Source of the DNA: Dimargaris cristalligena
Lineage: Eukaryota
Length of the DNA stretch: 64,000 nucleotides
Assembly (NCBI GenBank): GCA_003614675.1
Contig: ML002217.1
Span: 1-64,000 of the forward strand
Reading direction: 5' to 3'
In this document: positions 7,237 through 53,107 of the stretch, piece after piece
Numbering within the stretch: the stretch's first letter is position 1
How the letters are laid out: every line of letters begins with the position of its first letter
Notes under the pieces: model-generated
What the model was told of the DNA's origin: nothing
Database searches by the model: none
The model's input: only the letters and a program-made list of their open reading frames with translations
Position numbers and translations under genes: made by a program

Positions 7237-8838
7237 CTAATCATCACCAAAGTGAATATGGGTCCCTGTAGAAGGCGGAGGCTGTCCGCTGGGCATTTCC
7301 GGATCGGTTTGGGCCGAGTGGCTGTGGTCATGACCTGTCTGACGACTGGTTTGCTGCGCATGCCACAGGGATCGCACTATGTTCCAGTAGTGCAACTCCT
7401 CTTTACCTTGCAGTACTTTGGCTCGCAGGAGTAGAGGTGGCTCGGCCTGGGTGGGTTTGCCGCCGGCCAAGGGTGGTTTGGTAGTTGCCGAAGAAGAAAT
7501 GAGTTCAGTAGGCCCATCGATATCCATGGATACCTCAGATTTGCTCGATTGGGCATCAGCAAGGTCGCAGTTGCTGTTACCGTCGCGTTCGCCAGAACCA
7601 GCGGGGGTGGGTTTCGTCCCGCCCGGGAGGAGGGTCGCATCATTCTTCGCCCAAGCCTCCGGGGTCGCGTGGTAGACCCAATGAGTGGCAAAATAAGCCA
7701 CACAGCGCTGGGCCGCGGCAGGTTCGACAAATCGGAGGTACCCACTGACCTGGCCCCGGGTATAATCCACGTGTTCAATAGTTCCGAAGGGTCCCCCAAA
7801 AAGATCGGCCAGTCCCTCCCGCACGCTATGGGGATGCAGGCCGTGCACTCGGACAATAGTGCCCTCTGTGAAGGTCACAGGTCGCCGACGCTGCTTAATC
7901 TGTTCGTCCACGCGGACCCGGCTATCTTTGAGGTGTTGTTTGTATTCGTCCCGATAGGCTTGCCACCGCTGTCTGTGTATAAAGTAGTCAGCCCCCCCCC
8001 CCAATATTACATTGGTGGTACGCCAAGGTGACACCGTGTTAAAAGAATGACCGGAAAAATATAGAATACCATAGATACATGGTCACCCAAACCGAATTTA
8101 AATGGTGAGTAGACGGTTACGGAAATCGTGTGGGCGGTGTTTAGAAATACAACCTTGGTAGCCGCTCACCAGGCCAAGGGAGACCCTGCCTCTCCCGGAT
8201 TTAGAAATTAGATGATATCCATGGTCATCAGCTTGTGACTTATCCCATGTATTTTCCTAATAACAATAATTGTATCCAATAGCTAATGACGCAACTAAAT
8301 AAATAATGATATCATGGATTAAGAAAATGGTAAACAAAGACTGGTTCTATACATTACTTTGACATCACTCGAAGACCTAATTGTTGTATTTCGGGGGTGG
8401 CCTCAATGCCCCCGGATAATGGAACCACATCCTGAGGGTCAGGATTGCAATTGAACATGCGAATGGCCGCCAAGACACCCTCCCGCTGGGCGTAGCGTAC
8501 AAAAGCAAAACCAAGGAATCGCTTGTCGGGTCCGTATTGGAAGGCAATGTATTCTACTGGTCCACTCGTGGCGAAGAGCTGCCGGGCTGTTGCTATAGTA
8601 TTATACGGCGGCCGAATCGTTTCCTAAATCATCCCCAAGCCAATCCATATAACTTGTTTAATTAAAAAAAAACTGGCCGACCATTGCCACCGACTGCTCG
8701 GTGAAATAACGGTAGTATTCAAATGAAAATATAATTACATTGATCCAACCGAGCACACCAAACCGGGTGTACATAGCGGGGCTTACATTAACTTACCACA
8801 TATATCGACCTGGTGTCTTGGGCGGCCGTGTCGGCCAT
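7237..8838 (-). CDS. LARP7/p65/Pof8-like La-related RNA-binding protein (RRM + C-terminal xRRM), ~347 aa; exons 8838-8797, 8623-8358, 7972-7237
   Basis: Spliced frame is open with GT-AG introns. RRM1 RSIYV|E...RFLGFAFVRY; LARP7-like LRVMSK|QRWQAYRDEY; xRRM signature EGTIVRV...IEHVDYTRGQVSGYLRF...VLQGKEELHYW. Start ATG in ACCATGG context; an upstream exon cannot be excluded. Confidence 0.8.
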
Positions 8839-9416: not shown

Positions 9417-12400
9417 ATGTCAACCACTAACCAGGAAACAGCGGCTCAGCCGAAGCCAACCACCGTGACAGGTGAGCCCCTTTATCTATTACCCACCGAC
9501 ACTGTTAAGCACCCGCTAGGTCTAGACCACCCCTATACGACAATATGACAATATGGGCCTAGGACCGCCGGCCAATTCCATGGCCTAGGAAGTATCTAAA
9601 CCGGGTACACTAATCAGACCCCTCCATCCGTCCCGAATTCGTCCATCCGAAAACCGCTATACTTTTACCAGAGACCGCGGAGGAAATGACCGCCCGTCAC
9701 CGGAAAGAGCAGCGGGAGCTCATCGGCATTGTCACGGGGCTAAAAAAGCAAGCCAAGAATGAGAAGAAGCGGAAGAAGGAAATTTTGGAGCAGATTAGCA
9801 CCCTCGAAACGGAACTCCAGAAACGACAGGCCGAAGAAGTGGCTGCATTACACAGCGCGACTTCGACACCCACCATCTCAACGGCATCCGAGATTTCCCA
9901 ACTCGAACGGTCCATGGGTGGCTTGTACACAAGTACGAGGCGTAGTTCGGATGCCCAAGAGGATGGATCGGGCCGAAAACCTAGTCGACAAAAGAAGCGG
10001 CTGGTAAGTGGGATTGCTCAGGATCGGCTAAGCCTCTGTCCAACTGGTTGATTTTTGTATATACGTATTTCAGGTTTGGCCATGGATCAGGACTATATTA
10101 ATGTGCGCTATAGCATTCCGAAAATCGGTTTATTTAATGCCAAGTTTAAGATGGCCGGTATCGCTAAATCCGCCTCCCCTAGGACCCTGCAAATCGTTTT
10201 CAATCGACCCTTGACAAGCCCATGGACTATGTCTATCACCGTTTAATTAATTGATCTTTACGTTGTTCTTGGATCACCACCCATACAGGATAAACGGGCG
10301 GCAAAGATGGCTCAAATCCAAGAAGAAGCCGCGTCCGAGGCCGCCGGCCAAATCAACATGGAAGAGGTCGAGAATCGGGCCATCGCCGATCTTCTCAAGG
10401 TCAATAAGTTGACGCTCAAAGAGGTATGTAGGCCTTTTGGTTCCGTAGAGATTTAACCTGCTTTGATGACCCAACCCATGGGCCAGTCTCTAATGAACAC
10501 TACTCTTACACCAGAGAATACCGCTGTCGGGTTAATTGCGGAACGCCTGATGGCCCATTGGACAGTCTGGAAAGCGAATCGGTGAGACAGGCATCTTGTC
10601 CGGTTGGTCAGTAAGGCTTTTGATTTTAATGTGATGAAGAGATACTCGCAACATTCCCACTCACAGCCAATTTCTTAAACACGTTTTGTTTCCAATTACC
10701 ATGATACACCTGTCCCGAAACCAACCCCGAAACCAACCGGCCACTATTGGTACATATCCCTCGACGTAGGTGGAGTCCGATGGTCACTGGTAAGCCTAAA
10801 TTGTATATGTATTTTATTGGTAAGCAGTAGTAATTAATGCCTTGGACAAAGTGCCATGGTCACTTGGCCCGGGATCTTATTGCCCAATGCCAAGCCACCC
10901 GGCCATTTCGGGGTATACTAGAATGTCTTCCTTTATTATGACATTAATCCCCAAGTCCCCCAATATTGTTTATACGTCATTTTTTAAATTAAAAATATGG
11001 TAACATTAGTCTATTCCGGGCGGTGGCAGATCAGTTAGCCGAATATCACCATATTCGGGATGACTTCATGGAGTTGCGCCGCAAGGCGGCCGACTACATG
11101 AGGGCCCACAAGGACGATTTTATTCCATTTCTGGTGAATAGTACGGGTGACATCCTATCCAACGGTACGTTTATTTGATTTGCTTTGAGTGTTTTGGTAC
11201 TTGGTCTTATTGGGCCGATGGCTAAGTGGAGGGCGACTGGTGAAAAAAAACCATACCTCGGCTATTTTCAAAGCCAAGCCCGGCTGTTACTGAAATACAA
11301 TAATACATCCTTCGAAACCATGAGAAGTATTGATTCTGGCCCATTTGTTAATCGACAGAATCATGGAAAAAAATATTTCACCTATTGCTCACCCCACTCA
11401 ATCACCTCCATCTTCTCCAATATGGCCATATTGCTTCGGCTCTTAATATCACCGACGGAACATATCGGGCCTTATCAACGCTGGTTCTAACCCCAGAGGA
11501 ATTTGTCGAGTATTGCCATGAACTTGAGACGACGGCGGTTTGGGGCGGTGAACCTGAGGTAAGTCAGTGCAGTGTACGGAAATTATTCCACACCTGCATC
11601 TATGGTTTTGAATTTGAATGGCATTCGTTGGTGTACCATATTGAGCTCAGCAATTATACTCAAAAGGCCAAAGCATGCCAATTTGTCCCCGCGATTCGAT
11701 GCGTGGATCAGCCAAGCACTACTACCGTTTTTTTTTAAAAAAAACAACAAAAAAGGCCGAAGGACTGGATACATCACCACTGAGACGAGCTTGACAAGCC
11801 AGTAGCCCCATTTACATGTGAGATTCTCAAATATAGGCGAAGCGCAAGTATAATGATGACTGTAGCAATGGCTTTTGGAAGACACATGATGCTGACCGTC
11901 CATGGCGCGATGGCATGCTTGGTATCTCAACCGTGAATGCCTTGGGAACAATGTTGGATGTTACAATGCGAGTTATGTATGATGTCCAACGACCTTCCCA
12001 TCGGATTATCACACATCCTATCCTTTTCGCTCATCTCGGCTGACTTTTTGTGTGAACTAAATCGGACGGATCGACACCAAACAAGTCCCCAGGCCAACTG
12101 ATTGCCCTATATTTTAATATAGTCCAAACATTGTTCTCACGGATTTTGCCTAAGCCATGTCACTAACCACTCCCACCACCGAAGTATGTATCATCTGTGC
12201 TGCACCATTCCCCGCCCCCGCCTATTGCTACTCCTCCCGTACGAACTCCCCTTCCCTCCCCCAAGATCCTGGCCCTGGCCCACGTCTACAAGCTTCCAGT
12301 CCATATTATTCAAATGGGATCCCCCACCCTCAAGATTGGTGACGAGTACCCCGCACATGACCCGATTCGCCTCTCGTAAGTGCTGCTTGAACGAAGATCA

Positions 12401-13325
12401 GCAGGATCTCTTTAGAATTTAATGGCATTTTTATTCCGAGTTTATACGTACAAATTATTTATTATTACGACTAAGTATCCACAGTGAGTGGAACTGCTGG
12501 GGACCGAAGGCTGCTGCCCGTCCGTGGGAGGCGTGCCATCAATTCACCTGTTCATTCTTCAGGCCGGGCTAGTATTGGTTAGTCTACCTAGCCAGCCAAG
12601 GGATCCCAGGGCCGATCGGATCCTACCAGAACCCCACCTCTCCCACTTCCTATTAAGGCGCATGGTCCAACCATTTCGGCCGGCCCCGACCTGGTGTTGG
12701 GGAAGGGATGGTAACGGGCTCACTTGGGAACTTATCATTTAGTTTGGACCTAGTGAGAGTTCTCGCCTACTCTTAGTTGAGTAGCCCTGTTACCTATGGC
12801 GATCTTTACGGTTTTAGTACAATGTCCGCTTTTGCCCACTTTGGATTTTTAATCTATTTTACGGTGCCAATCACCGACTTGAGATTTGTTTGGTCTGTCG
12901 CGTCCTTCCAATCGCATTGCCCGTTGTTTCATGGCCATCTTTCCTATATATTTTGTTTTAGTTCGATGGACAGTCGCTTTCACTTTCACTGCCGGTATTT
13001 TGTACTCGCGGCCTTCAAATCCCATCAATGCAAACCACCATGGTTTTGTACACCCATCCCGAATGTGGCAATCGCCTTAACACTCTGGTCCTTCGTTGGC
13101 CTCAATGAATACGGGAACAAACATACCCTCCCGCCACTATTATGGCCACATACACATTGACACACGCCATCACCACGGACTTGCTTCGGATAATTTGTCT
13201 AACATCGCTATGTTATCCTTGATAAAATGTACTGCCTTGCTTCCAGATACCATCACCATGCGTTTGGTCTGGGCCAGCATTATAATTCGCTGCGCAAGAA
13301 ACATTTGCACCACCAAGAAACCTGA
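9417..13325 (+). CDS. OTU2: OTU-domain deubiquitinase, Otu2/OTUD6 family; exons 9417-9471, 9672-10003, 10289-10423, 10770-10789, 11010-11164, 11497-11558, 12266-12375, 13247-13325
   Basis: Spliced product has the N-terminal charged coil (RHRKEQREL...KKRKKEI), Cys loop VESDGHC|LFRAVADQL, LRRKAADYMRAHKDDFIPF, variable loop WGGEPE|ILAL, His loop LS|YHHHAFGLGQHYNSL. All seven introns are GT-AG and phases are consistent. Confidence 0.92.
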
Positions 13326-13582
13326 TTTCACTGATTAGACATCTCACTTATCAGACAAATGTTCCCCAGATGACTTACACTGACTATTTCAATTTCGATG
13401 GATAATCCTCTCCTCATCGCCTACGTCTGAGTGAAGGGGGTGAATTTTCTAAATGCCACTACATTTCTCATTACCACTAAAGCCATTCGAAATGTTGACC
13501 ATCCCATCGTAAATAGGGATATGTAGTAACTTTATTTTGGTTGATTGATTGACCGGACGATCCCTACTTTGGTTAATTTCAC

Positions 13583-13603
13583 ATATATATATATATATAT
13601 ATA
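13583..13603. repeat. (AT)n microsatellite
   Basis: Direct reading; similar AT runs at about 51402-51419 and 52354-52368. Confidence 0.9.
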
Positions 13604-16600
13604 AAGAATTTCTTTGTCGATACATTGATTATCGATTTGATTTTTGACCAAAAGTGAGCCGCGGGTAATCAGTTGACCCCGCCACCCAATGGGCACTTCT
13701 GCGAGAGAATAAATGGACAGAATTTGGTCCGCAAAATGGGTGGAATAGGCGGTGAGGAACTTGCCATAACTCTTGTACATTGCACAACAATGCCCAAAAG
13801 GCCCCCAAAAATGACCGCCGATCCCTATATTCAGTGGTATTACTCATTTGGGTCCGGGGATTGCCCACTTCAGTTGACTCTAGTACGATGAATGTTCTCT
13901 TGCCAACCTGCTGGGCCCAACGGTTTCTCACATCGATTAAGAAAACTAGCCTTATTGACCGTGTAACGGTTTAGGTCGAGTGGGACCGGTGGATCAACCG
14001 AGTTTCCAAGGAGGGAATGATTTGACAAAATAACAAGGCGCCGAGTTGGGCGAGAAAGCTTTTTAAAGAGTTATTTATTGATTATTAAATCGAAACTTAA
14101 GGAGTTAAGATTGTATTATGTCTATTCATTATATACTACTCGGTTGGTTGTCTACTGGCTTGGGCGGCTGCTGTTCGCCACTTGCCCGGTGGAGGCGGAT
14201 GTGAGGGGAAGGGCGAGCTGGACGATTTCATTGGACGGATGTCCTAGTCGTTCTACAATTGGGTGTTCCGCCTCGCCTGGCGGTTGCAACCGCCACGGCC
14301 ATTATACATTACCTAAGCCTGTTCAAATGGGGGTAGGTCGATTTACTTTTAGATGATTGGGGTACGAGAATGTTGGTTCCTCACCCAACAAGGTATTCGG
14401 CATTGACCGCCTATTTTTAGGTGACCATTGCCCAAAGCACACCCGACTCTATCCATAATAGATTGCTCACTCTTTCCCCCATCCCTTCATCCATCAATCC
14501 AATGTATTTTTTAATTTAGATGAAGATGCCCCGCCTGGGTCACAGTCCGATGAGGACAATTTACAAGACTGATTAGCCCCAATCTTTATAAATTGGGTGG
14601 ATTTTGAGAATGACTAACCGAAGTCGGGTTCATCAACCCCTCCCTCGCCCTAATAGAAAATACACTGGGATGTCCCGCCTAAACTTTTAAGTTGATTACA
14701 AGGCCTTCTTCCGCCGAAGCTTTGAAATTCTTCCTCAATCAAATTCAAGCGAAAATTATATTCGGCCCAAAACAGATGAGAAGTCTTCGTTTTGAAGCCA
14801 TAAAAAAATACATGGACTTCATGACCATGGCCTTCATGTTGCATGGGGACAAAGCCCACGGGGGGGAGTCCGGATGTTGGTGAACATGTGCCCGAGAAAG
14901 AGAGTCCACAATGGGAGAGGGGGGCTGAAACGGAGGGGCATGTTTTTAGTGGTGGTTACCTCAACCTAAGCCCTGCTTATTTCGGACCTATTTTAAAAGT
15001 ATGATGGAGAAGCACCGAGAATCCATACGGATAAATGGAGGTTGGCTAAACTATTTTTTGATTGTTGATTTACGAGAAGGTGGTAAAACGGGGTGTGTAT
15101 CTGATAACTGTAGGGATAATAGAATCAACTGACTGAACCTATAGTTTCTTAGGTATGCATTACCCACTCCAAGGGCGTCAGCAAATGGGGACGCATGTGA
15201 GCAGAGTGAGGTCCTGGAACTGATAGTGTGATGCTTTCTATAGAAATTTAGCCCCGGTAAATGTTGACGACTGTTGTGTCCATTAGAATCCCATAGTACG
15301 GCAAATGTGAACGAAGTAGGGAAGACTTAGGAGTATGAGTGAACAGAACAGTGAGAGTAACCTTTGGGTACAATGGCACACTCGTCTCATTATGAAATAA
15401 CTGTACCCTCAAGACCTTCAAAAAAGCTCGTTATCATCCGGAGTACTAGGTTTCAAATAGGTCGATATGGCTACTAGACGACTAGCTCTACAAAAGTCGG
15501 TTGGGCTGTTACTCGGGTAGGCGAGCGGGCTTGAAGGGTCCGAAAATGCCAGGCCACAAGGAACAGCCGGTCAAAGAACTTCCCCCCCAGAGAACTCGGG
15601 TACGCTGCCTCCCCCTAACTGCATTCGGCCAACCACCTTAGCCCAGGGTACCCTTGCGCGGGCATCTCATCTAATACCCTTGTCGTACATCACAACACAA
15701 ATCATTCCGAACCGCAGGGTTGCTGCTATTAATTTGTTTAGCGCACATAAACCCCTACTTTCTCCCACTCCTGCATTGCTCCTCACCCACCCATTCCCCA
15801 TTTGTAGACCAGCTCAGACATGTGTTGAGTGTCCCGTTATATCAGAGCACATGTTAGTCTGGGAACTGCGTTTCGGACCGCACGTCCCCATGGCATCCCT
15901 TTACCACTACCGGAATCAGCCACGACACATACTTCACCACTTCACATTTCGGGTCATGGCTTGTGGATGGCGTGGGGTAGTCTAGCTCGGATTATTTTTT
16001 TAACGGGATGTTAAAAAATGGACGAGTTGCACCGCCTAATTAGAGTAGGCCAGTGGGCTGGAGTGTGCCAGGGGCGCAGAGCTACCACAAAACAAAGGGC
16101 ATGACCACCCCTCGCCCTCGAAAATCGCGCACCAAAATACACTAGCCGTACCTTCGCAATCGATCCTTGGTGAATATAATCTTCTGTGGACGGCAATTTA
16201 TGAAAGGAATTTGGAGCACCTCTTCCAGCCCCCTCCCCTAATGCCCTTTAACCTCGAGTTCCGAGTAGTATGTTTAACAATGGGGAAGGTATGACAGGCC
16301 AATGGAGCACTAATGAATGAAGAAGAAAGATGAGGCTGGGGTGTGTGGATGTGGGTGTGGGTGTGGGCGAGAAATATCCTTGTCGAACTTCCTATCCAAC
16401 TCATTGGCCCCCATGTCCATATAGATACCAACGTTAATCCTGTGGGGGGTGGATACTTGCTGTATTTTTACATGATACGTGTCTTAGATATTTGATGTGC
16501 GCTAGGGACACATCTTGCCTTATATATACCGGCCAGATCAGCCCTTGGGGAAGTGCCTCGGCGAAGACATTTCATATAGACCGCATCGGGCTGGCAGCTA

Positions 16601-18060
16601 TACTACATCTGTGGTGGAATATTGTATTTTTCTCATACAGCTGGGGCCGGGTACATAATGGACCCATCCCACAGTTACGTCAGCGGATACTCAATTACAG
16701 GGCCAGAGTTAGCCCAGTGGGTCCGTCGAAGATGTTTCATCAGACCATGGCCAAGTCCCCCATATTACCATTCCCGCTAACATTCAGAGGACGTGCATTG
16801 CTCCATTTTACAGGTCTTTAATGTAATGCAAACCCCTTTGCGTTTAAGTATTGGGTCTGAGGATTCTAATTACGCTAAACCCTTTGCCTACCCTTAATTA
16901 CACCCTAGCGTCCTTCAATAACAAGCATAGTCTCATACACAGCTTGGTATACCCACCCATACATTGGTGAATCTATTAAATTGCGCAATCCACTAATGGC
17001 TGTCCCCTGCCTAATAATTGCACTCTATCCCCACCCTTCATTTCTCTTTCTCACTCTCTTAACATAATCAATGTTAAAAGGACCCAGGCCATTGGCCTCT
17101 TTCGAGCGATCCTTCGCTGACGAACAGCATGTGGTTGGAAACTTCTACTCTAACACGGATACACTCGCATGGTTCGGGTGAGAAACCACGAATACATTAG
17201 GCTACCGTATCCATTTATTGGACGGTCCAAGGAATGAAAAATGGTAATCGTCTGAACAAACGTGTGAGCTCAAGTAAGACTACAACCACACCCCTACTAA
17301 AGCATCCCCATGCTTAATTGACTATCGGAGGGAAAATACAGTGGATTTGAAATCCTTTTCATGAATACCTCATTCAGATCCCTTACTTATATTCTCACTG
17401 ATCACAACTATCCCAAAATGGTTAAATGCGATTGAGAGGTCTCACCCACGCGCTACACTGGTTGACTCTTTTTGAATTACCCCTGGTGTACTTGTAATAA
17501 CTGAAATTATGGTACAAATTATATCATATCCAGAAATGCCAAAGGCAATACAGGCTCACAACTAGGTTACCTGCTTCAAAGTCGCAGTCTGATCAAAGCT
17601 TAATATGGCCCAATAGAGTGTATTGGCCTTGTCTAAATTACCCTTGTTCAGTAGGTAGCGGTATGCGGCCAATAACCAGTATAAAATAAGGATTTGATTA
17701 GTTCTAGAAAGATCGCCCCTACAATGATACAGTTGAAGATGGCCCAAATGAACCGTGGTGGTTGGCGGAGGAATAGATTGAGCTGAGTGATGGTGGAAGA
17801 GGACTGGCGGACAAGCCAAATTGTACGAAATCATTATTGTGGATAATAAGTATCTAGAGGGATTTCCGAGCACCTGTCAAAGCATAAATACAACGGTACC
17901 CTCCTCCTCCCATAGTCACCCACCATCCCTCTCACTTATTCGCCCCCCATTCGGCCTCGATTCATTGGTTTCGCTCTTTCCACCATTTCCCGCCTAAGCC
18001 TCACTCTAACCCCCCTTCCCAGTCCTTAGCAGTTGAAGTGCTATCCCTTTTCCACACACA

Positions 18061-18474
18061 ATGAAATTCTCCGCCATTGCCATCGCCACCGTCGCCGCCT
18101 TCTGCACTATCGTGCAAGGTGCCGCTCTGCCCGCCGTTCAGACCCTGGACCGACGCCAATTCTTGAATTACTCCAGCGACAACGTCTACAACGTCAAGGC
18201 CCAGAAAATTTTGAGCACTGATTCGGCCATGAACGACCGCATCATTTCCGACCTGAACACCCTCCAACTGGATGGTCTGAATGGCACGGCCCTCTACTCT
18301 ATAACCAAACCCTTCTCGAGTATTTCCAACTTCGTGACCCTCAAGCTTTCTTATGGAGTTGAGCCCCAGGTGAAGAAATTTTCCTGGTACAACACCATGT
18401 ACATGGACAGTGTTGGCTATGCCAGCGGTGAGAGCAGTGATAGCAGTGACAGTGGCTGCCTTGGTATGTGTTAA
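18061..18474 (+). CDS. Small secreted protein, tandem-array copy 1 (137 aa), candidate I9/subtilisin-propeptide-like inhibitor with C-terminal GCLGMC
   Basis: Signal peptide MKFSAIAIATVAAFCTIVQG, pro-segment ending DRR|Q, C-ending codon bias, three clear paralogues downstream. Product call is by-eye inference. Confidence 0.9.
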   Translation: MKFSAIAIATVAAFCTIVQGAALPAVQTLDRRQFLNYSSDNVYNVKAQKILSTDSAMNDRIISDLNTLQLDGLNGTALYSITKPFSSISNFVTLKLSYGVEPQVKKFSWYNTMYMDSVGYASGESSDSSDSGCLGMC

Positions 18475-19882
18475 ATTACGAGGGCCTTCTCTCTTGTCCC
18501 TTAGTTTCATTATACCAGGTTTGTAGTCCCTGTCGCTCCTTATCTCTTTATTTTTATTTTTTCACTCCCGTATATTAATGCCATATGTTCCCCTAACTCT
18601 TTAATGCCACTTCTAGTATCCCCAATTTACATCTATTGCTGTATTATGCAGGCACGCCGTTGTCTACTTGCACCCAAATGCCCATATTTATGGTTGCGTA
18701 TAATGTCAATAAATTGATTAACTCTACCCAAGGCCGCCCGTCGCAGGTTAAGATAAAAAGAACCCTCGATTGAATCAGCTGTCTTTTACAACCTGCCGCA
18801 GGAAGTCCTCGAAGGCCCCCTCTACCCATTATATTGGAATGTGCTCATCCCGACACTGGATGTTCTGATAACCAATCCAATACTCTGCGTAGAATCACCC
18901 TATTGTATTAGGGGGGTGGAATTCAGGTATTTTAGGTGCCTTTATCACTGACCATAGGGTAATAGATATGGGATCGACGCAATACACATTCGGGTACTGT
19001 CCAAGGGTTGATCTCGGCGTTTCTCCTTGACAAACCACTTTCCGGTCTTCTCGACTGATCCTCTCATTCAGCTTCTGTCCACACTACACCCCACCTTGAG
19101 AGGATAGTTAACGATTTAAGTTATTGTTATTAAAAGTGATAGATTAAGAGGGATGAATGGCCTTTTTTTGCCGATCCTGGCTTTATGCTTATGGATTACT
19201 CGACGGGAATCGTGTCGGCTTGCCAGGCGGAGCCGTTAACTATCGCATTTGTTAGCTCAATACGAGTATGCACTAGTACCCAGTAGAATACGTGGTTGGT
19301 CGGGTATTAAATGTTTTACATTGATGCGTCGCAAAGTCAACAATTAGATCGAATGTTACAGGGTGTAGTAATCAATATATGACACTTGGGCGATATATGT
19401 ACAGTACTGTAAAGGGCGTGTCAATGTGATATACTAATGCAAGGTTCTACATGTTCCCCACTATAGGAGTTATAATACCCAACTTCGCACAGCAAGAATC
19501 TAGCTATAGGGGAGTTGGTCGATTCTAAGTCATGTGACCCAGGATTAGTAAGTTGAATGAGATGCTTATTTGCTGAGTGTGTGTATGTGGGTAGGATACT
19601 GTGGCAGACTATATTCTATGGCTCACTCATAGTCGTAAGTTTCCACCTACTCAGCCTATTCCAAAGTCCAATATACCCTAAAGGAGCGTGCTGGATTTTA
19701 AATAGGAGTCTTTGTTCAGTTCATGGATGAAAGAAAGTGAAGGGCGGGATGGCTGTTGGAATGATGGCCTGAGTGGGAAGTGTCATGGATGATTGCCTCA
19801 TCTGCGCGAGAGTTAGTTAGCGATGGCCATAGGAACTGTGGAGTTCGAAAAGTGTAAATTGGGCTAACCAACACTGTGAGAC

Positions 19883-19968
19883 CCAAAAGTTACGACTAGA
19901 TGTATGGAATAGTTTATCGTGGCTGGAATAATTGGACTCAATTTCTAATTTTCCATGGAATATAAATA
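19883..19968 (+). promoter_or_regulatory. Core promoter of array copy 2: CCAAAAGTTACGACTAGATGT element plus TATAAATA (equivalents precede all four copies)
   Basis: Copy 3 has CCAAAAGTACGGCTAAATGT (22143) + TATAAATA (22205); copy 1 CCAAATTGTACG (17816) + CATAAATA (17883); copy 4 CCAAAAATT (23966) + TATAAATA (24025). Confidence 0.6.
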
Positions 19969-20163
19969 GCGCGCTGGATCTCCTCCGGTTTTACCCATCA
20001 TCACACACATCATCAACTTTATTTGGCCTGACCTCGCTGGCATACTTTCCTCCACCCCCCACCATTTCCCAATTGTTCCTCCCTCAGCCCTCCTCTGCTG
20101 CTACACTCTACCTCTCCACCAGCCCCAGGCCAGCCTTTCCCAAACCACCCTTTTCCATTCACA

Positions 20164-20562
20164 ATGAAGCTCTCCGTTGTTGCCTTCGCCGCCATTGCCG
20201 TCGTCTGCACTTTTGTGCAAGGTGCCGCCCTACCCACCGCCCAAACCCTGGAACGCCGCCAAATGAACGGCGTGGAAAGCGAGAACGTCTACAACGTCCA
20301 GGCCAAGAAAATCCTGACCACCGACTCCGCCATGAACGCCCGTATCATTTCCGACCTAAACACCCTCAAGCTGGGCAACCAGAACGGCACCGCCCTTTAC
20401 ACCGTGACTAAGCCTTTCTCCAGCATTTCTAACTTCCTGGGTCTCAAGCTCACCTATGGTGTCGAATCCCAGGTTATGAACTTCTCTTGGTACAAAACCA
20501 TGTACATCGACAGTGTCGGTTCTGGTAGCGGCGATGATAGCGGCTGCATCGGTTTCTGCTAA
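20164..20562 (+). CDS. Small secreted protein, tandem-array copy 2 (132 aa), C-terminal GCIGFC
   Basis: Signal peptide, ERR|Q, same core; about 81% identical to copy 3 (25 differences in 132 positions, counted by hand); TATAAATA at 19961. Confidence 0.9.
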   Translation: MKLSVVAFAAIAVVCTFVQGAALPTAQTLERRQMNGVESENVYNVQAKKILTTDSAMNARIISDLNTLKLGNQNGTALYTVTKPFSSISNFLGLKLTYGVESQVMNFSWYKTMYIDSVGSGSGDDSGCIGFC

Positions 20563-22357
20563 ATTAGAGGACTGTCATTATTGACTCCGTCCATACAGCT
20601 TGACTATTATCATTCCCTACTTTCAGTCTCCATACATAGGTACGACTCCTTTTACACCGTTTACATTTTTATTATTTATTTTTTACATAGTCGCAAATGT
20701 GCATTATAACTATCGTATATACTGTCAATAAATTATTATATTTTAGCCTCAAAGGTTATTAAACCAACTGATACCCATACCATAACACAAGGTAGAAAAA
20801 TCTTGAGCCGAAGTTCCAGCATAGGAAGGCCCTTGAAGGCTTTCGACATCCATTGCAATACAAATCTTTAGCATGACTTTGGCCAATTAAGCGGCTGCAG
20901 TTACATAGCCATTTATAAAGCTCAAAATACTTGAGAATGCTGATACTCGCTTTAAATCCTGCTTAGCCCATCTATAGCATAGCCGACGTTCGGCCAGTGC
21001 ATAACGTAGTCTTCCATTGGACCAGTGCGTATCCTTGTAATGATTAAATGTAGCCAAACTTATCAGACCATTTGTATATATTCTCCCGACTTTCCCATGC
21101 CCATATACTAAATACAGAGTCAGACGGAGGATATATGGAATCGGTAATTTACTAGATAGGCTGATCAAACAGGTATTGCTTTTCCGAGACTATTGGAGTG
21201 GTGTATTTAAGGTTGAGGACACATACCATTATGGATTATTCAGTTATACAACTGGCTAGCCAGATATTTTCTTATATAGCTTACTACGATTGGCAATATT
21301 CAAAACGATGTGGGTGAATTATCTTCCAACAATAAAGTGACGCGTGCTGACGGTGAGAGACCATAGAACCTCTTCAGCCCATGACCGGTGTGGGTAATAA
21401 AGGATTATTTTTGGATAAACCTAATCTAACTGCATAGCCAAACATGGTCAGATTCCAACCCAGCTGTATTGGGTCGCCAAATGCAATGTAGCTGGAAGAG
21501 TGGTTGGGTGTTTTGGTATACGGCCGAACTAAACCTCTTCCGTATGTTTCTTGGGACAAGTGTTTCCAGTTGGAAATGCAAACCTCATATATTTTCTTAT
21601 TAGGGCTAAACCGAAGGTTTTGCACAGCTACTTGAAGTCCTTCCCAGATTGTTCAAATTAGAGTTTGAAGGGAGTTTGGCATACGGGACAATCATCCAAC
21701 GGAACAGCACCTAAACTCCGGCGACAACTTTTTTCAGAGAGAGGAATTGGCATTTACAAATAAGGTAAGAATAAAAAACGGTTTCCACCGGCCGCGTTTA
21801 GGTCTAATTAGTGTGGTTATTTTTTAACATTTGACGAGGTCTGGGTAGTAGGGTTGGTTCACTATTGGCCTGTTGGATCCACTGCCCCAGCCTGCCCAAG
21901 GTCCAGTATAACCGAAAAAAATAGCACTGGGGTCAATGGCGGTTGTTTATAATCACTGGGCCGACGAAAGCAACATGGAAGACATTGACAGTGCGAAGGG
22001 AAGTTGTGGGTGGTTCGCCATGAATGATTGGCCTTACCGCGGATACATAGTCGATGGCGATGGCCAAAGGAATTACAGAAGTGCGGAAGGAATTCACTAT
22101 TAGGAGTTTTCATGTCGATACCTAGACCTATACTTCCCCCAGCCAAAAGTACGGCTAAATGTTAAAAGTGCCATTCAAGCCCCATCTCGTGTCCATAATT
22201 CAACTATAAATAGTGCACCATTCCATCTTCGTTTTAATTCATCACCATTCACATTTTATAGTATCCGGCATTACCTTGCCCTCCTCCCAATCAACCCCAC
22301 AGCGCACTACTCCTTCGCCTCCATCCGCTCAATAAGCATCTCTCCACCCCCTTCACG

Positions 22358-22756
22358 ATGAAGTTCTCCGCCATTGCCTTCGCCACCCTCGCCGCCGTCT
22401 GCACTCTTGTGCAAGGTGCCGCCCTGCCCACCACCCAGACCCTGGAGCGCCGCCAAATGAGTGGTGTAGGACCCGAGAATGTGTACAACGTCCAGGCCAA
22501 TAAGATCCTGACCACCGACTCCGCCATGAACGCCCGCATCGTTTCCGACCTGAACACCCTCAAGTTAGGCAGCCAGGAGGGCACTGCCCTCTACTCCTTG
22601 ATCAAGCCCTATTCCAGTATTTCCAACTTTCTAACCCTCAACCTTACTTATGGTGTCGAGTCCCAGGTGCGGAGCTTCTCTTGGTACAAGGCCATGTACA
22701 TCGACAGTGTTGGTTCCGGTAGCGGCGATGATAGCGGCTGCATCGGCCTCTGCTAA
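22358..22756 (+). CDS. Small secreted protein, tandem-array copy 3 (132 aa), C-terminal GCIGLC
   Basis: Signal peptide, ERR|Q, same core; TATAAATA at 22205. Confidence 0.9.
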   Translation: MKFSAIAFATLAAVCTLVQGAALPTTQTLERRQMSGVGPENVYNVQANKILTTDSAMNARIVSDLNTLKLGSQEGTALYSLIKPYSSISNFLTLNLTYGVESQVRSFSWYKAMYIDSVGSGSGDDSGCIGLC

Positions 22757-24160
22757 ATTACCAGGTTGCTGTCCTGCAATACCTTACGGGCTCCCAGTTT
22801 ATATCCCAGTTTCTACTCAATTTTTTTACATCGTATATACTTTACATTTCTTTCTAACCCAAGTCGAACTTAGTCATTGGGTTGCGCTATCCCCCGATTT
22901 TCTAAGTATTGGGAAATGATCACTGCTGTGATCGCACGTTGCTAATAAACCACTCCAAAGTCCGGAATGATTAGTGGCCCGTAGTCTAGAACAGATGCCC
23001 TTGCTAATGCATTTAATTTTAACGTAAATGGCGATATGAATGATCATCGGAGTAAATCATTTTTCTATTTGGTCCGGGCTTTTGGGAATGTCATTGGCCA
23101 TTGAAGCGATAGGTGCCATATAGTACTACTAATATATTTTTTAATAATATGACCAAAAGCGCTACTCTAAATTCCGTTGGGGATATTCATAATTTAGTAA
23201 AAACTATGTCTAGTTTATGAAAACATTATACACTAAGTGAAAACCTTGGTGTTGCCCATGAACAGCCCCAACCATCCAGCGCTAAATTCTTACATATATT
23301 TCCCACGTATCCATTACTGTACTACCTAAGGCCTTGAAGGGAGCCGCAGGCACGGGGTGAGCACTTGGTCCAGTTAAATATAGGAATAGGTGCAAAAGAG
23401 CAGGTAGCTAGCTGTTTGACACAATATTCGCGAAGAGTTATTTGGCAGTGGTTGAGGAATGCGCTCCTTTGCAATTGGAAGCATAGGTTTCAGATATCTT
23501 TTAAAAAGGAAAGGCCCTGTGCGAGGCGTCGGAGGGTCAGGCGCCAATGCTTTATGGTGTAACCTGCGGCACATCTCAGGGGGACAGGTAAACAATGTCC
23601 ACATGCCGCGGTTAGGGCATGAAGGGGTGGTTCTGCTTGGTAACGGTTAGTGAAGTAGGTACGGTTGCACAGTTGTGCAGTTTCACTGTTGGCCAGTTGA
23701 ATCTAATCTGCTGGTTCACCAAAAGTTCAATTATACCGAAACGGGCGACTCAATATTGAAAGCTGATGTATTGATTTCGCCGGGCAGAGCGAAAATGGGT
23801 ATCTGGAAACTATGCGAAGTTGCGCTGAAATGGTAGCGGCTGGCCATGGACAATGCCCATCATCGCCCGCCCAATCGATAGTAATAGTCATTGATGAGGA
23901 AGGAACGGGATGCATCCATTCGAGCTTAGTTCCGGTGGGTGAGCTGATACTTGCATTTTAGTATACCAAAAATTCCCTGTAGAAAAAAAAGGATTTAAAC
24001 CCAGGTTCTGGTTATTTCTCAAAATATAAATAGGATGTCGACAGTCTCCCCATTAAACTCATCAATTACATCTAATTACCACATCTCAACCGTACCATTT
24101 CTTCACGCACCCCTCCCTTTCCACCCCCTATTCCACCTTCCCGCCCCTTTGCCATTCAAG

Positions 24161-24565
24161 ATGAAGTTCTCCGTTGTCGCCTTCGCCGCTATTGCCGTCG
24201 TCTGCACCTTTGTCCAGGGTGCCATCCTGCCCACCACTCAGAAGTGGGATCGCCGCCAAATGAGCGGTGTTGGTGCCGAGAATATCTACAACGTCAAGGT
24301 CAAGAAGATCCTGGCCACTGATTCCGCCATGAACTCCCGCATCATTACTGACCTGAACACTCTCAAGCTGGGCAGCAAGAAGGGCAGTGCCCTCTACAGC
24401 GTGACCAAACCCTACTCTAGCATTTCCAGCATCCTGAGCATCAAGATTGCCTATGGTGTCGAGTCCCAGGTGAAGAAATTCTCTTGGTACAACACCATGT
24501 ACATCGACAGCGTTGGATCTGCCAGCGGTGGTGGCAGTGACGACGGCTGCCTAGGTTTCTGCTAA
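24161..24565 (+). CDS. Small secreted protein, tandem-array copy 4 (134 aa), C-terminal GCLGFC
   Basis: True start is the MKFSVV ATG at 24161 by homology (the track ORF starts at 24035, just after the TATA at 24025); DRR|Q; same core. Confidence 0.9.
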   Translation: MKFSVVAFAAIAVVCTFVQGAILPTTQKWDRRQMSGVGAENIYNVKVKKILATDSAMNSRIITDLNTLKLGSKKGSALYSVTKPYSSISSILSIKIAYGVESQVKKFSWYNTMYIDSVGSASGGGSDDGCLGFC

Positions 24566-24840
24566 ATTGCGGGGCACTTCACGCCGGGCGGTGCGCTTTT
24601 TACCGTTTAATTAATTCAAACTCCTGCCACTCTCAGCCTTTACTAACCCATGTGGAAACGCCTTTTGTTAAGACCCGCCAATATCTGGTTAGGCCACACT
24701 TTTTCTTGGTTATATCCATGGACAATAAAATACACAATCACTATTGTGTATTCTGGCGATGTTTCTTTTCGATATTTAATAAATATAGTTGTCAAATTGT
24801 TCAAATAAGGGCCATGATATGGGGGTTAATTGGCCAATAT

Positions 24841-26828: not shown

Positions 26829-27030
26829 CATAAGTTTTTTGCCCCGGTTTCTGTATGGCTGCCATTAGAAGCAGTGGCTAACTTCCATCTTCACTATTCG
26901 AGCCTGTGGAGGCGGTTACACAAACCTCATCTTAACCCATACCCACCCGTCTAACCCATTGGTCCCATGTTGGCCCCGTTTTCGCAGTACTTCGATTTAT
27001 CCCCAACTCTCGCATTACTCCACTACAGTC

Positions 27031-28335
27031 ATGTCCCACCTTGACCACCCCACCACCACCGAAAGCCCGCCCCCCCCTCCGGCCGCCAACGTCATTCCCC
27101 AGATGGAACCAGGTCGAGTCATTCGGATTGACTGTCGACCCCAGGTTGCCGCCCCAACATCCACTACCACCACTGCGGCCCCCACGACTTCGGTCCTACC
27201 CCCCATCTTCAAAGTCATGCAATGGAACATCGAGCGCGGGTATGAACTCGAGCGCATTTTAGCCGCGCTCCGTACCGAAAAGCCGGACATTGCCATTCTG
27301 CAAGAACTGGACATTGGGTGCGAACGGAGCGGCCGGACCAACCAACTGGAGATTATCGCCCAAGAGATGGGTTACAACGGGGGTTTCGTGGCCGAATTCG
27401 AGGAACTGCACTGCCCCCAAACCCGGTCGGCGCGGAGTCAAGGCGGGGGGTTCCACGGGAATGCCATTTTTAGTAAATACGATATGGATTTCCGGGTCAT
27501 TAACCACCGGTACCAGCCCATCAACTGGGCCCGGGACGGGGCAGCCCGGTTCCAGGAGCCCCGCCGCGGACAGCGCTACACCCTCGCGGCTACGATTCAA
27601 CCGACGTTTCCCGGGTCTGAAAGCCTCCGTCCCCGGCCCATTCAGGCGTACTCGGCCCACTTGGAAGTGTTCTGTGGCCTCAGTCACCGCATCGCCCAAT
27701 TCGCCGAACTGCTCGAAGATGCCTACCAAACGAGCGGCCAATACCTCCACCAGCTTCTTTTCGGTGACATGAACACACTGGCCCATTCGCTGGCCCGGCT
27801 ATCCCCCAAATACTGCCAGGATCGGTTCCGGTGGCGGTCCTGGGGTTCCACCGAGGCTCAGTGGTGGTTTGACCATGTCTTGTCAACCCACCGGGCCCCG
27901 CTACCCCCTGGTACCCCAGTTCCGGTCGCCCCCATAACGAAGCCCGACGACGACCAGCTGGTCAGTGAAAAACCGGCCGGGTCGAAAGAAGTACCAGCCG
28001 CTTCGTCTTCCACGACTGTGACCGGTCCCGACGGCACCACCACCACCACCGTGGCCCCGCTCAAGGAATCGACCCAAACCAATCCCCATCTAGAGAAATT
28101 CGGTACCTCCGTGTTCCCACGCGAAGTACTCCGTATGGCCATTAATCCCGGGTTCAGCGAACCGTGGGACCTGAATCAGGACAATACCCTTCAGAATTTC
28201 TACGGATTGTATAAGGGAAAACTCGACTGGACTTTGCTGATGGGTTTTGAGTGCCTGAGTAGACATATGGGCAACGAAAATTACCTGGCTTCGGACCACA
28301 AGTACCTCATTGTGTACCTCGCCTACAAGGACTAG
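27031..28335 (+). CDS. Endonuclease/exonuclease/phosphatase (EEP) superfamily protein, 434 aa, intronless
   Basis: EEP catalytic motifs in order: KVMQWNIERG, PDIAILQELD, GNAIFSKY, SAHLE, FGDMNT, KLDW, ASDH. First in-frame ATG at 27031; P/T-rich low-complexity N-terminus and internal insert. Confidence 0.88.
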   Translation: MSHLDHPTTTESPPPPPAANVIPQMEPGRVIRIDCRPQVAAPTSTTTTAAPTTSVLPPIFKVMQWNIERGYELERILAALRTEKPDIAILQELDIGCERSGRTNQLEIIAQEMGYNGGFVAEFEELHCPQTRSARSQGGGFHGNAIFSKYDMDFRVINHRYQPINWARDGAARFQEPRRGQRYTLAATIQPTFPGSESLRPRPIQAYSAHLEVFCGLSHRIAQFAELLEDAYQTSGQYLHQLLFGDMNTLAHSLARLSPKYCQDRFRWRSWGSTEAQWWFDHVLSTHRAPLPPGTPVPVAPITKPDDDQLVSEKPAGSKEVPAASSSTTVTGPDGTTTTTVAPLKESTQTNPHLEKFGTSVFPREVLRMAINPGFSEPWDLNQDNTLQNFYGLYKGKLDWTLLMGFECLSRHMGNENYLASDHKYLIVYLAYKD

Positions 28336-31060: not shown

Positions 31061-31975
31061 CTAATTGATTCCCCACTCATGGTAGTTACACATACACCCC
31101 TGCTGTGACGGAAGATAAATCCCGACTAGGGCAATCACATTTTCCAGGAGGGTACTGTCAAGAGCCACTTCATGGAATACTAGGCTAGTAATTGACTCAG
31201 CCATTGGGTGGTTCGGGTCACTTGGCACCATTCGAGGTGTCGCCGGGGCAACTGGGCCATGTGTAATAAGGAACTGCAGCAGCACCGTTGTGGTACTATT
31301 GCCCTGCCGAGCTATCCTGATTGCATTCTCTATACGCCCAGCCACTGTGTCCGGGAGGACGAGTCTCCGCAGACTACGGTCGCCTTTGATTTGGGCTGGC
31401 CAGCGAAGTACATCCCAATAAATGGATCCCCTCAGGATCAAGGTTCGGTTCGCATGTTCGGTTTCGCGGGGCAAGCTTGTTGGAACCCAAGCGGGCCATG
31501 GATTGGCGTCGAAATTCATGGGTATGACGACCACTAGTTTAAATTTTTTTACTGCTTGAATAGTCCGCCCTAAAATGCGAACCAATTTATTCAAGAGGGC
31601 GGGATGGTACACCTCAATGACTAGACTTTTCAAGAGTAGTAGGGCGTCAATGGCAATGCCAAACAAAGAACTAAACTGAGGGTCAGCGGTGGCTTCGCTA
31701 TCCAAAATGAGGGTGATTTGCTGTATGTTATTCCGGTACTTAATTAGAACGCAATATATTTCGTGGGCGTCGGGGGAACTGCTTGCCCCCCACGTATGCT
31801 GAAAGCAAAGGGGACGGAGGTCCAGGGCTTGGGTACGGCGGACCGAAGCATATGACAGAATGACCTTATTTGGGGCATACTGGTTCAGCCGAGCCACAAA
31901 AGTGCGACGAAGCTCGCTTGGTTGAAATTCGGGCATAGTGTATTCAGCAAGTTGGCGGGGCGCGTTGGAATCCAT
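31061..31975 (-). CDS. Hypothetical protein (~304 aa), no recognised family; the 3' end may be spliced
   Basis: Long complex-composition ORF in otherwise AT-rich, stop-rich DNA; ATG in ACCATGG context at 31975; GTATGT donor-like site near 31095 could alter the C-terminus. Confidence 0.6.
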   Translation of the reverse strand: MDSNAPRQLAEYTMPEFQPSELRRTFVARLNQYAPNKVILSYASVRRTQALDLRPLCFQHTWGASSSPDAHEIYCVLIKYRNNIQQITLILDSEATADPQFSSLFGIAIDALLLLKSLVIEVYHPALLNKLVRILGRTIQAVKKFKLVVVIPMNFDANPWPAWVPTSLPRETEHANRTLILRGSIYWDVLRWPAQIKGDRSLRRLVLPDTVAGRIENAIRIARQGNSTTTVLLQFLITHGPVAPATPRMVPSDPNHPMAESITSLVFHEVALDSTLLENVIALVGIYLPSQQGCMCNYHEWGIN

Positions 31976-34030
31976 GGTGTTGTATAGATAAAGTATACTG
32001 TACGTCAAAATATGTGCTAAGAGTTGTTGTATTAACAAACAGGAAGTATTGGTTCCAGGTGTGATCAGGCGGTGGAATGGTCGAAATCGCGGTGGATATT
32101 ACTGAGGTTGAAGGGTGTGAGGAATATTTAAAATTCGAGTGGTGTGTTAGCTGAGCAATGGTGGGAGTAAACATTAGATAACTAAGTGGTGGTGTTGATA
32201 GGTCTAGTAGAGGGGCCGCATGCTACCTTTTTATCCCCAGCAATGCCAATTACCAAAGTACAGTAAGCCGCAAGACTACGTCACATCTCGCATCACCTTG
32301 TTCGACCAGGCCCAGCCACCAATTGGGGAAGTAACAAAGAGTATGCCTTCCCAACGGCCATTGCGAAGCTTGGCCTAATCTGTAGCTTGGCTACTTAGCC
32401 CTACCTGTCGACTATTTAGTAGTTCTGTGGCAAACTTGAAGTGATAATCATTGTGGGTGGATTAACCGATCGTTGTAGTCAGCAGTCGACCTGGCCATCT
32501 CTTTGTTCAATCAAAAGGTGATCAACGATTACCAATGGCCTTTTTCCCGGACTCATCGACTTCGCCACCAACCTCCAAGTAAAATAAAAGCAATTTCTCG
32601 ACTTAGAACCTACGACAATCGCCTATCCATCAAAAACGGCGCCAGACCCATCAGTGGCTGCCCATTTACAATATCCGAAGACAAGGTGGGTAAAAAATAT
32701 TCTGACTTGAATTCGATGGACGGAAGGTCCAACGGTGAAAAAGAAAATAACGGACTCCACCCCACCCTGACAATGGTGAAAACTCGATAAGTCCTTCGTT
32801 GTTTGCTATCTCGTCAATTGGGATGTGAGTACGCCTCCCAAAGCCTCATTAGATTATGTCTAAGGTTGTAATCTTTCGTGAAGATTGTTGGCTACTCTCA
32901 ATGTTTTACTTAACTGGGGTCAACAATGGATTCCCATCACACTCGTCAATCGACCATGAAAATAGCCGTTATGCCGAATGCGACACCATGTTGGCCCTAA
33001 ACACTCACACACTAGCCATCGATATAGGCACTAGCAGCAGCGGTAACCATTGCATAAGCCCTTCTGAATAGTTCGCCGGGATTCGGCCAATCAAGACTAT
33101 ACTGTGTAGCGACAGGTCTCTCTGCCTTAGGTAGCTGTGCCATCAATGACTAGAACTCTAACACCCCTATTCTTTGTACGTGGGAGGGCACTCTCCTAGT
33201 CTTCTCTGCCCGTTGTTTAGCCTGAGATATGGTCTGCGCTGGAAACAATGAGTTGTTCATAACAAAGAATCAACCATCACCTATGCTTCGTATATTTGGC
33301 TAGATGTGTGAATCTTTAATTAATTGAGGACACATTCAACATCGACATCGCTTGGCCCTAGTGCTGGGAACTATTGCAGGCACTATTGTATGCCCATAGT
33401 TTGGAACTAGGTTCCATGACTACTGTATTTATTTGGGTGAAATTGGAAACTACATGTAGGTCGGGGTGATAATGATAATCCATCGAAAGCACGGTTCAAT
33501 CAGCTATCGCCTAAACCAGGAGCTAATAACATCAACCACAGCTATATGACCGTGGCACCTGGCAACCAGTGTTGGTTATAAAGTATTACAATCAACATGT
33601 TAGGCACAGTTTCCAATCGAGCTTACCAATCAATTATCAAAACTCCAGGGGGCGGGATTGCTTATGGTGTTTTAGGTTACAATATAAATGTAATGCGAGA
33701 CGTGTAATGCTATAGTGTTTCCTTATAATACAATACCTTTAAATTAAAAAGAGCATGGATCATGGGGCTTATGGTTAAAAAAGTCGGTAAGGATATAAGA
33801 AATGGACCAAATGGTACCTAATAGAGCTATATCAATAATAAAATTAAGATCAATTCATTGCAGTCCAATAAATCAGAGCGCTTGTATATTTCTAGTGTTG
33901 GAATTATGCATCGATGGGTAATTGCAAAGCCTTCCTAAAGTAACTTAAAGAAAAAATTGACAAGAGAAAGAACTGCAGGTGGTATTGCTAAATGCTCGTG
34001 GTTGGGTGGATTGAGTTAGGTAAAAGACAT

Positions 34031-50931: not shown

Positions 50932-53107
<2,176 letters not shown>

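Follow-up and report, generated by a model that had tools for sequence, protein, structure and literature searches.

A two-cysteine C-terminal tail on four tandem, predicted secreted and probably I9-like proteins of Dimargaris cristalligena

The window, i.e., the whole stretch of 64,000 nucleotides analysed in this work, comes from Dimargaris cristalligena, and the list of its open reading frames includes four tandem intronless ORFs on the + strand, spanning positions 18061-24565. Database proteins named as those of D. cristalligena are 99-100% identical where they overlap with the encoded products. All four proteins share the same layout: a hydrophobic N-terminus, a short propeptide with terminal RR, an invariant Gln, and a domain of about 80 residues; after the domain come DSVGxxSG, also invariant, a G/S/D linker that is acidic and varies in length, GC[IL]G[MFL]C, and TAA. 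Across the four copies, the linker counts 4-9 residues, with a net charge of -3 to -4. The features are the following:

17883..17891, + strand: variant of the TATA-like box, read from the sequence
18061..18474, + strand: copy 1 gene, 137 aa, ending in GCLGMC-stop; longest linker, 15 residues beyond the inferred P1
18454..18474, + strand: copy 1 terminal motif, GCLGMC-stop; a GTATGT hexamer resembling a donor overlaps it at 18464
19961..19969, + strand: TATA-like box TATAAATAG 5' of copy 2, with a putative promoter role
20164..20562, + strand: copy 2 gene, 132 aa, ending in GCIGFC-stop; the copy carrying the finding
20164..20226, + strand: putative signal peptide of copy 2, about 21 aa, a hydrophobic N-terminus judged by eye, including the third Cys
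20227..20259, + strand: putative short propeptide of copy 2 with terminal RR (Kex2-type site), the invariant Gln being next
20284..20511, + strand: folded domain of copy 2, probable beta-alpha-beta-beta-alpha-beta I9-like fold, weakly supported by sequence
20512..20529, + strand: SVGSGS of copy 2, putative P6-P1 segment according to the alignment register
20530..20541, + strand: acidic linker GDDS of copy 2, predicted disordered, indel-tolerant
20542..20562, + strand: copy 2 terminal motif, GCIGFC-stop, probable disulfide loop
22205..22213 and 24025..24033, + strand: further occurrences of TATAAATAG, read from the sequence
22358..22756, + strand: copy 3 gene, 132 aa, ending in GCIGLC-stop
22736..22756, + strand: copy 3 terminal motif, GCIGLC-stop, read from the sequence
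24161..24565, + strand: copy 4 gene, 134 aa, ending in GCLGFC-stop
24545..24565, + strand: copy 4 terminal motif, GCLGFC-stop, read from the sequence

The TATA-like boxes lie 136-203 bases ahead of each of the four ATGs. Signal peptides and Kex2 cleavage sites were assigned by eye; according to the established knowledge of fungal secretion, the four proteins would undergo signal and Kex2-type processing, and the invariant Gln following RR could cyclise to pyroglutamate. The domain of copy 4 is basic (net charge +7, pI 9.1) and harbors no N-glycosylation sequon; copies 1-3 are acidic, with 1-2 sequons each and a domain net charge of +1 to +2. Copy 4 possibly has a target differing from that of copies 1-3. 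All four stop codons are embedded in TAAATT (18472-18477, 20560-20565, 22754-22759, and 24563-24568), and the similarity among the copies is lost a few bases downstream.

Pfam searches identified the neighbours of the cluster as an xRRM/La-type protein (7237-8082), an exo/endo/phosphatase (26869-28335), a KilA-N plus ankyrin transcription factor (34999-39768), a histone H1 (42957-43532), a GCD14 tRNA methyltransferase (50932-52004), a class I/II aminotransferase (54786-56601), and a protein kinase C (57742-60981); judging from these assignments, the cluster is surrounded by housekeeping genes. No Pfam match was retrieved for an intronless frame of 345 codons (31061-32098, minus strand) or for a Ser/Thr/Asp-rich secreted protein (3638-4498, minus strand), whose hydrophobic C-terminus is GPI-anchor-like by eye. 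The region of about 6 kb located 5' of the cluster (~11900-18000) has no Pfam-matching frame and may be gene-poor or contain short exons.

According to the original prediction, all four proteins end in G-C-x-G-x-C, and these are the only cysteines of the mature chains. The four ORFs do end in GCLGMC, GCIGFC, GCIGLC, and GCLGFC directly before TAA, and each mature chain has exactly two Cys, at positions -5 and -1; a third one, the invariant Cys15, falls inside the signal peptide. The linkers also correspond to those quoted in the prediction, and the indels of the alignment are confined to them. The strict pattern (G-C-hydrophobic-G-hydrophobic-C-stop) occurs five times in the 30.7 Mb genome versus once in the reversed control, and four of the five matches are the cluster genes, the remaining one being out of frame within another gene; hence, the tail pattern is not due to chance. 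The looser CxGxC-TAA gave 42 matches in the genome versus 47 in the control; 30 of the 42 were translated, and besides the four cluster genes none of the other 26 resulted in a secreted-looking ORF.

Two public models describe copy 1: P0004 is unspliced and retains the tail, and P0007 splices out the last Cys through the GTATGT donor at 18464. The GT-AG interval that P0007 takes as an intron (18464-18653) swaps the last two residues for 39 others. Since copies 2-4 read GTTTCT, GCCTCT, and GTTTCT at this position, i.e., they lack the donor, and since the 3' flanks cannot be aligned, the spliced model is a probable gene-calling artefact.

The comparison of the four copies revealed purifying selection in all six pairs (dN/dS 0.21-0.39). 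Over the six codons of the tail, pS is 0.48 and pN 0.14, and the alignment of the 100 bases 3' of the stop beat shuffles in none of the six pairs; the contrast between the two substitution values, together with the unalignable flanks, indicates that the tail is kept by selection. The changes at its variable positions are conservative rather than diversifying. The motif had been described as invariant. That it is maintained stood the check, but it is no better conserved than the domain (invariant columns 4/6 versus 47/79; pN 0.14 versus 0.13), and its invariance rests on four paralogues sharing 65-81% identity, since homologues outside the species were not found. A second study's contigs (run X5) show 11 differences over 7 kb, two of them in coding sequence and none in the tails.

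Homologues outside D. cristalligena, including those of related species in which the conservation of the tail could be followed, were searched for in sequence sets, by profile scan, in metagenome contigs, in plasmids, and in the PDB, and none was found. Probing a set of 5.8 billion sequences with copy 2 gave 20 candidates and four hits, all of them cluster copies; a search of the same set with the profile of a mixed alignment (A4) yielded three out of 177 candidates, again all cluster copies. The full HMMER scan of 1.84 billion representatives retrieved one family member and one vWA/SEA repeat protein, judged noise. None of the 517 pattern matches in metagenome contigs was confirmed, plasmids gave no match, and the PDB sequences returned designed WD-repeat proteins alone, at E 0.002 or worse. 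In the own genome, each of three query copies found four matches.

The prediction had also assigned the domain to the I9 family. None of the four full-length and none of the four mature chains matched Pfam PF05922 (cut-off 21.2 bits) at E up to 10, and the genome-wide search with the same profile gave five matches, the four copies being absent. Against a profile of 21 own-genome I9 domains, copies 1 and 4 fell into the register expected, at single-comparison E values of 0.007-0.024. With a profile of 24 such domains the copies scored 0.9-4.4 bits, a score reached by 136, 187, 17, and 206 of 1000 shuffles, respectively, whereas, among the left-out controls, three true stand-alone I9 proteins scored 29-78 bits and a distant proteinase-B-type prodomain 6.5. 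The hhalign comparison gave the same register globally, with 16/200 (global) and 81/200 (local) shuffles at or above the score. The identity to the stand-alone I9 proteins of the genome is 13-19%, and in strand 3 the copies have F/I in place of the I9 glycine. In the ESM Atlas, the nearest named clusters of copy 1 (residues 38-120) were Fervidolysin_NPro-like, Inhibitor_I9, PopD, and CspB prodomain, with scores of 0.83-0.89, values below 0.9 being leads only, and with a family or clan common to nine of the best ten; copy 2 (residues 33-132) gave no usable match. In the MAFFT alignment A4, the copies' C-terminal half is gapless with respect to the 21 own-genome I9 domains.

Unseeded AlphaFold2, run on the four copies alone, gave a model with pLDDT 38, in which a helix (23-34) and a two-strand hairpin (43-50 and 59-66) lie close to the places expected of a prodomain; fold searches with this model returned no structural match. 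When seeded with 21 own I9 domains, AlphaFold2 produced the full beta-alpha-beta-beta-alpha-beta fold with an overall pLDDT of 76 (81-90 in the domain, except for a loop block at 67, and below 50 over residues 83-100). The best Foldseek match of the seeded model was a subtilisin prosegment (E 0.017), with 3whi among the top matches; the best VIA match, likewise a subtilase prodomain (Z 7.3, rmsd 5.1, 78 aligned), was tied with unrelated ferredoxin-like folds, and 216 chains reached Z 5 or more, so the fold class is a common one. The seeded model is circular and, as a model, shows compatibility with the prodomain fold only. The predicted complex between copy 2 and the catalytic domain of the proteinase-B-like subtilase of the genome scored 0.00 with an uncertain partner fold, which is evidence neither way. 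On the whole, the domain probably adopts a prodomain-like fold. The I9 assignment is thus retained as a probable I9-like domain, a lead given by the ESM Atlas, the A4 register, and the seeded model, but not as a membership backed by Pfam or profile scores, which are not significant.

These data also bear on a reading in which the four proteins are no inhibitors and represent orphan secreted effectors or surface proteins, with another fold or a reused prodomain fold (of the MORF or PCSK9 type), the tail serving some other interaction. The sequence-level I9 tests, all non-significant, would agree with it, as would the low identity to the stand-alone I9 proteins, the low pLDDT and lack of structural match of the unseeded model, and the widespread fold class; nevertheless, the neighbours found independently by the language model are prodomains, and the gapless register and the end point are common with the own I9 proteins, so we consider this reading unlikely, though not negligible.

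The genome of D. cristalligena is rich in such domains: it yielded some twenty subtilase prodomains and, apart from the cluster, at least five stand-alone I9-like genes with a secreted product. The subtilase genes (L041-L062, L075, L083) code for proteins of about 870 aa with an I9 prodomain, many of them having a hydrophobic residue and then Asp/Glu at the expected prodomain cut, hinting at an unusual processing specificity, as far as their sequences tell. A subtilase expansion is described in PMC9866270, which counts 28 in one isolate of this haustorial biotrophic mycoparasite, and in PMC6784888. Like the four copies, L045, L057, L059, L061, and L078 are secreted I9-like proteins without a catalytic domain, and L045 has the same signal-propeptide-RR-domain layout and a similar length (138 aa); unlike the copies, none of the five ends in Cys, and four of them stop at the P1 column. 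Three of these genes (L057:1072-1686, L059:361-1728, and L061:1000-1674; G000 C619, C1166, and C1813) encode a long Thr-rich mucin-like stalk, with a stand-alone I9-like domain at the C-terminus and a protease domain lacking; they were missed by the PF05922 genome search and are clearly similar to the own subtilase prodomains. Further small stand-alone secreted I9-like genes are L043:1315-1728 (G000 C108), sharing the signal-propeptide-RR-domain layout of the four copies and having no homologue found outside D. cristalligena, and L078:1004-1429 on the minus strand (G000 C25).

The alignment A4 allowed us to place the tail with respect to the protease cleft. The four stand-alone D. cristalligena I9 proteins included in it all end at the Ser of DSVGxxS, six residues past the Asp column, and their tails likewise consist of small residues. 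The corresponding P6-P1 segment of the copies would be SVG[YS][AG]S, from which the chains overshoot by 15, 10, 10, and 12 residues (copies 1-4), values that depend on the register; all the indels of the four-copy alignment fall within this overshoot. The register rule is not strict, because a fifth stand-alone protein, L078, which is not in A4, also overshoots, by about six residues as judged by eye. The alignment of several solved prodomain chains to the copy 1 model reaches residue 87, the Ser being residue 85 and the first Cys residue 96, in a low-confidence stretch. According to PMC10580911, the last residues of stand-alone I9 inhibitors occupy the cleft, and the C-terminal residues tune their potency. 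The model of TrI9 ends at P1 and makes no contacts on the prime side, and a zymogen prodomain runs on across the prime side by a loop of about 13 residues (10.64898/2026.05.05.722857).

Regarding the ring, a backbone-only and crude sampling was carried out, with assumed angle ranges and distance limits. Extended or P1-kinked five-residue backbones had a CA1-CA5 distance of 9 A or more, and 0/20000 kinked samples could be closed by a disulfide; on this result, the motif does not fit the extended P4-P1' loop within a disulfide ring that is typical of Laskowski-type inhibitors. Backbones containing a turn can close the ring, and the central Gly helps (647 versus 406 of 20000). Because an i to i+4 disulfide is incompatible with the extended backbone found at S4-S1, a closed CxxxC ring, on this modelling, would not bind like a substrate; moreover, because the motif lies in the overshoot of 10-15 residues, it would not reach S4-S1 unless the linker loops out. 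The idea that the ring occupies S4-S1 is therefore not supported: in the I9 register, P1 falls on the Ser of DSVGxxS, 10-15 residues before the C-terminus, and a closed ring cannot extend.

In one version of that idea, the linker loops out and the ring, placed in the protease cleft with F/L/M in S1, would be a plug that resists cleavage and tunes specificity. A Gly followed by F/L/M suits the P2 and P1 preferences of subtilisins, the Ser of the canonical register would be a poor P1, and I9 potency is tuned by C-terminal residues (PMC10580911). However, the distance of the motif from the putative P1 differs among the copies, the unextendable ring would require a non-canonical pose or a reduced state, and the variable positions change conservatively instead of diversifying, which leaves this version improbable.

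An intramolecular disulfide, also part of the prediction, is plausible: the proteins are secretory and have two Cys only, and, by analogy, the CLGRC loop of flatworm mesco-2 is described as a disulfide-forming one in an unstructured C-terminal tail (PMC13149500). The same two Cys might instead form intermolecular bridges, the pseudo-palindromic tails pairing antiparallel to give homo- or heterodimers, chains, or an attachment to wall proteins, with the linker freeing the domains (as in a bivalent inhibitor or a surface coat). The symmetry of the motif around Gly (C-hydrophobic-G-hydrophobic-C), the disordered and indel-tolerant linker, the four co-located paralogues with compatible tails, and the fact that an extended strand, unable to close a ring, suits antiparallel pairing all go in this direction; furthermore, modelling in PMC13149500 has the CLGRC loop modulating oligomerisation. 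Nonetheless, the crude sampling shows that the ring can close and does so more often with the central Gly, and at i to i+4 intramolecular closure would usually win in the ER, making the bridged forms a distinctly unlikely alternative.

CxxxC is also the Cu(I) ligand motif of Sco proteins, and the tail, with its acidic linker (net -3 to -4) and nearby Asp, could bind a metal such as Cu(I), for scavenging or delivery at the host interface. Since the oxidising ER, through which the proteins pass, favours a disulfide, and neither a His nor a further ligand nor an HMA-type CxxC in the domain was found, we regard metal binding as highly improbable.

The prediction had proposed, as another option, a RiPP-like core released from a carrier domain, and this was not supported: each precursor has a single core, the tails contain no basic residue (0 between the last strand and the stop codon in all four copies) and no Pro, and no tailoring enzyme was found nearby. 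The families of tailoring enzymes in Pfam were absent from the 21 selected ORFs of the window and from 69 frames of at least 62 aa in the flanking 9-18 kb and 24.6-35 kb regions, a search that short exons or unlinked genes could escape. MSDIN precursors have a Pro-flanked core and borosins a fused methyltransferase domain; the copies have no Pro in the tail, no Pfam domain, and only the domain of about 80 aa. C-terminal prenylation signals have Cys at -4 (CaaX) or a CC/CxC end and belong to cytosolic proteins, whereas here Cys is at -5 and -1 in a protein with a signal peptide. For the KEP/dikaritin type, PMC9769878 describes several cores with Kex2 sites at their flanks; the copies have one tail motif per precursor. 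In common with these fungal RiPP precursors (KEPs/dikaritins, MSDIN amatoxins, borosins, epichloecyclins), the four proteins are secreted, by prediction, and combine a short C-terminal peptide with a Kex2-type site, but they are single-core and lack repeats as well as a Kex2 site or Pro flanking the core, and no tailoring gene was found nearby.

Another form of release can be depicted, in which a subtilase cuts the S|G bond (P1-P1') or the linker and frees an acidic ring peptide of 10-15 residues, as a signal or a host-directed molecule, the domain acting as carrier and protease sensor. The S|G bond is invariant and located at the prodomain cut position, and the stop immediately follows the ring; yet the tail offers no Kex2 site, basic residue, or Pro, there is one core per protein, no tailoring enzyme occurs in the 21 + 69 nearby frames, the domain is conserved equally with the tail, and the length of the peptide would vary with the linker. 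We would give this scenario a very slim chance.

Two further candidates were tried and rejected. The tail as a remnant of the catalytic-Asp motif and first disulfide loop of a subtilase was equalled in score by 255-788 of 1000 shuffles. The other candidate was that the tail exchanges thiols with an unpaired Cys next to the catalytic His; 0/20 His-motif contexts of the own genome (two of them chance matches) harbor a Cys there.

The bolder readings are weakened by the register, the ring geometry, and the gene context. We tentatively favour, with a confidence somewhat short of even, the interpretation of the four proteins as secreted prodomain-like subtilase inhibitors having SVG[YS][AG]S in the non-prime subsites and a prime-side extension whose intramolecular disulfide loop serves as a C-terminal cap or a secondary contact. 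Signal and Kex2 cleavage would give a mature stand-alone I9-like protein, whose domain would dock onto an S8 subtilase in the manner of a prodomain. SVG[YS][AG]S would occupy the non-prime subsites, where Ser, a poor P1, would be cleaved slowly; the chain would continue across the prime side with the flexible acidic linker and then the C-x-G-x-C disulfide loop. Rather than plugging S4-S1, the loop may protect against carboxypeptidase trimming, pairing with a cap made by the N-terminal Gln/pyroglutamate, and/or provide a small hydrophobic secondary contact. The likely targets would be the expanded subtilases of the fungus itself or those of its host. We counted in favour of the inhibitor interpretation the Atlas neighbours, the register and end point in A4, the AlphaFold2 models, dN/dS, the subtilase expansion with the further stand-alone I9-like genes, and the ring geometry, and against it the Pfam null, the shuffle-level profile and hhalign scores, the Atlas values below 0.9, the null of copy 2, the circularity of the seeded model, the missing strand 3 glycine, and the overshoot of L078. 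On this interpretation, the four-gene family would work like an I9 inhibitor, even though two features fail, namely the Pfam match and, if the register is right, the end of the chain at P1.

A related and rather doubtful scenario is that of a "decoy zymogen", in which the prodomain of the mycoparasite docks on an own or host subtilase and a slow S|G cut yields a disulfide-cyclic acidic peptide as a signal set off by the protease, or the ring stays tethered as a non-canonical binding or thiol-exchange element. If true, the disulfide ring on the prime side would be a functional part of an I9 protein, an architecture of which no description was found in the literature searched.

To our knowledge, in the stand-alone I9 inhibitors characterised so far the chain goes no further than P1, and the target protease degrades them in the end. 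The fungal ones (yeast Pbi2/YIB2, Pleurotus POIA1/2, and Trichoderma TrI9; PF05922, MEROPS I9) resemble the copies in the probable prodomain-like fold, in the lack of a catalytic domain, and in the small-residue segment that follows the last strand in the P6-P1 register. The copies differ in having no Pfam match, their own signal peptide and Kex2-type site, and 10-15 residues with two Cys beyond P1, whereas TrI9, as modelled, ends at P1 without prime-side contacts (10.64898/2026.05.05.722857). A subtilase prodomain that is still uncleaved and carries its connecting loop (e.g., T. reesei SLP2 model, pro-subtilisin E 3WHI) passes P1 into the prime side by about a dozen residues, as the copies would do (same source), although in the copies the loop ends in a free C-terminal Cys pair and no catalytic domain follows. 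The CLGRC of mesco-2 and the Rana box of frogs share with the tail the C-hydrophobic-G-x-C arrangement in an unstructured C-terminal tail, an analogy for which no homology is claimed (PMC13149500); those antimicrobial peptides are short, cationic, helical, and of animal origin, in contrast to an acidic tail on a folded domain. Secreted I9-domain proteins are already known (PMC5585356). In line with the original prediction, the searches turned up no characterised I9 protein bearing a tail of this kind: the full-text literature searched, which comprised few subscription papers, contained neither an I9 with a C-terminal disulfide tail nor a mention of this four-gene family. The tail architecture is real, selected, apparently undescribed, and restricted to a single species in our searches.

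The reach of these data is that of four paralogues from one species, with a putative fold and function. Within it, a natural secreted I9 protein combining a prime-side extension with a terminal disulfide loop would represent another way to tune or stabilise this class of inhibitors, of possible value for controlling proteases when proteins are produced in fungi. For D. cristalligena itself, the four genes may offer a first way into the question of how a haustorial mycoparasite that has about 28 subtilases handles its own proteases or those of its host.
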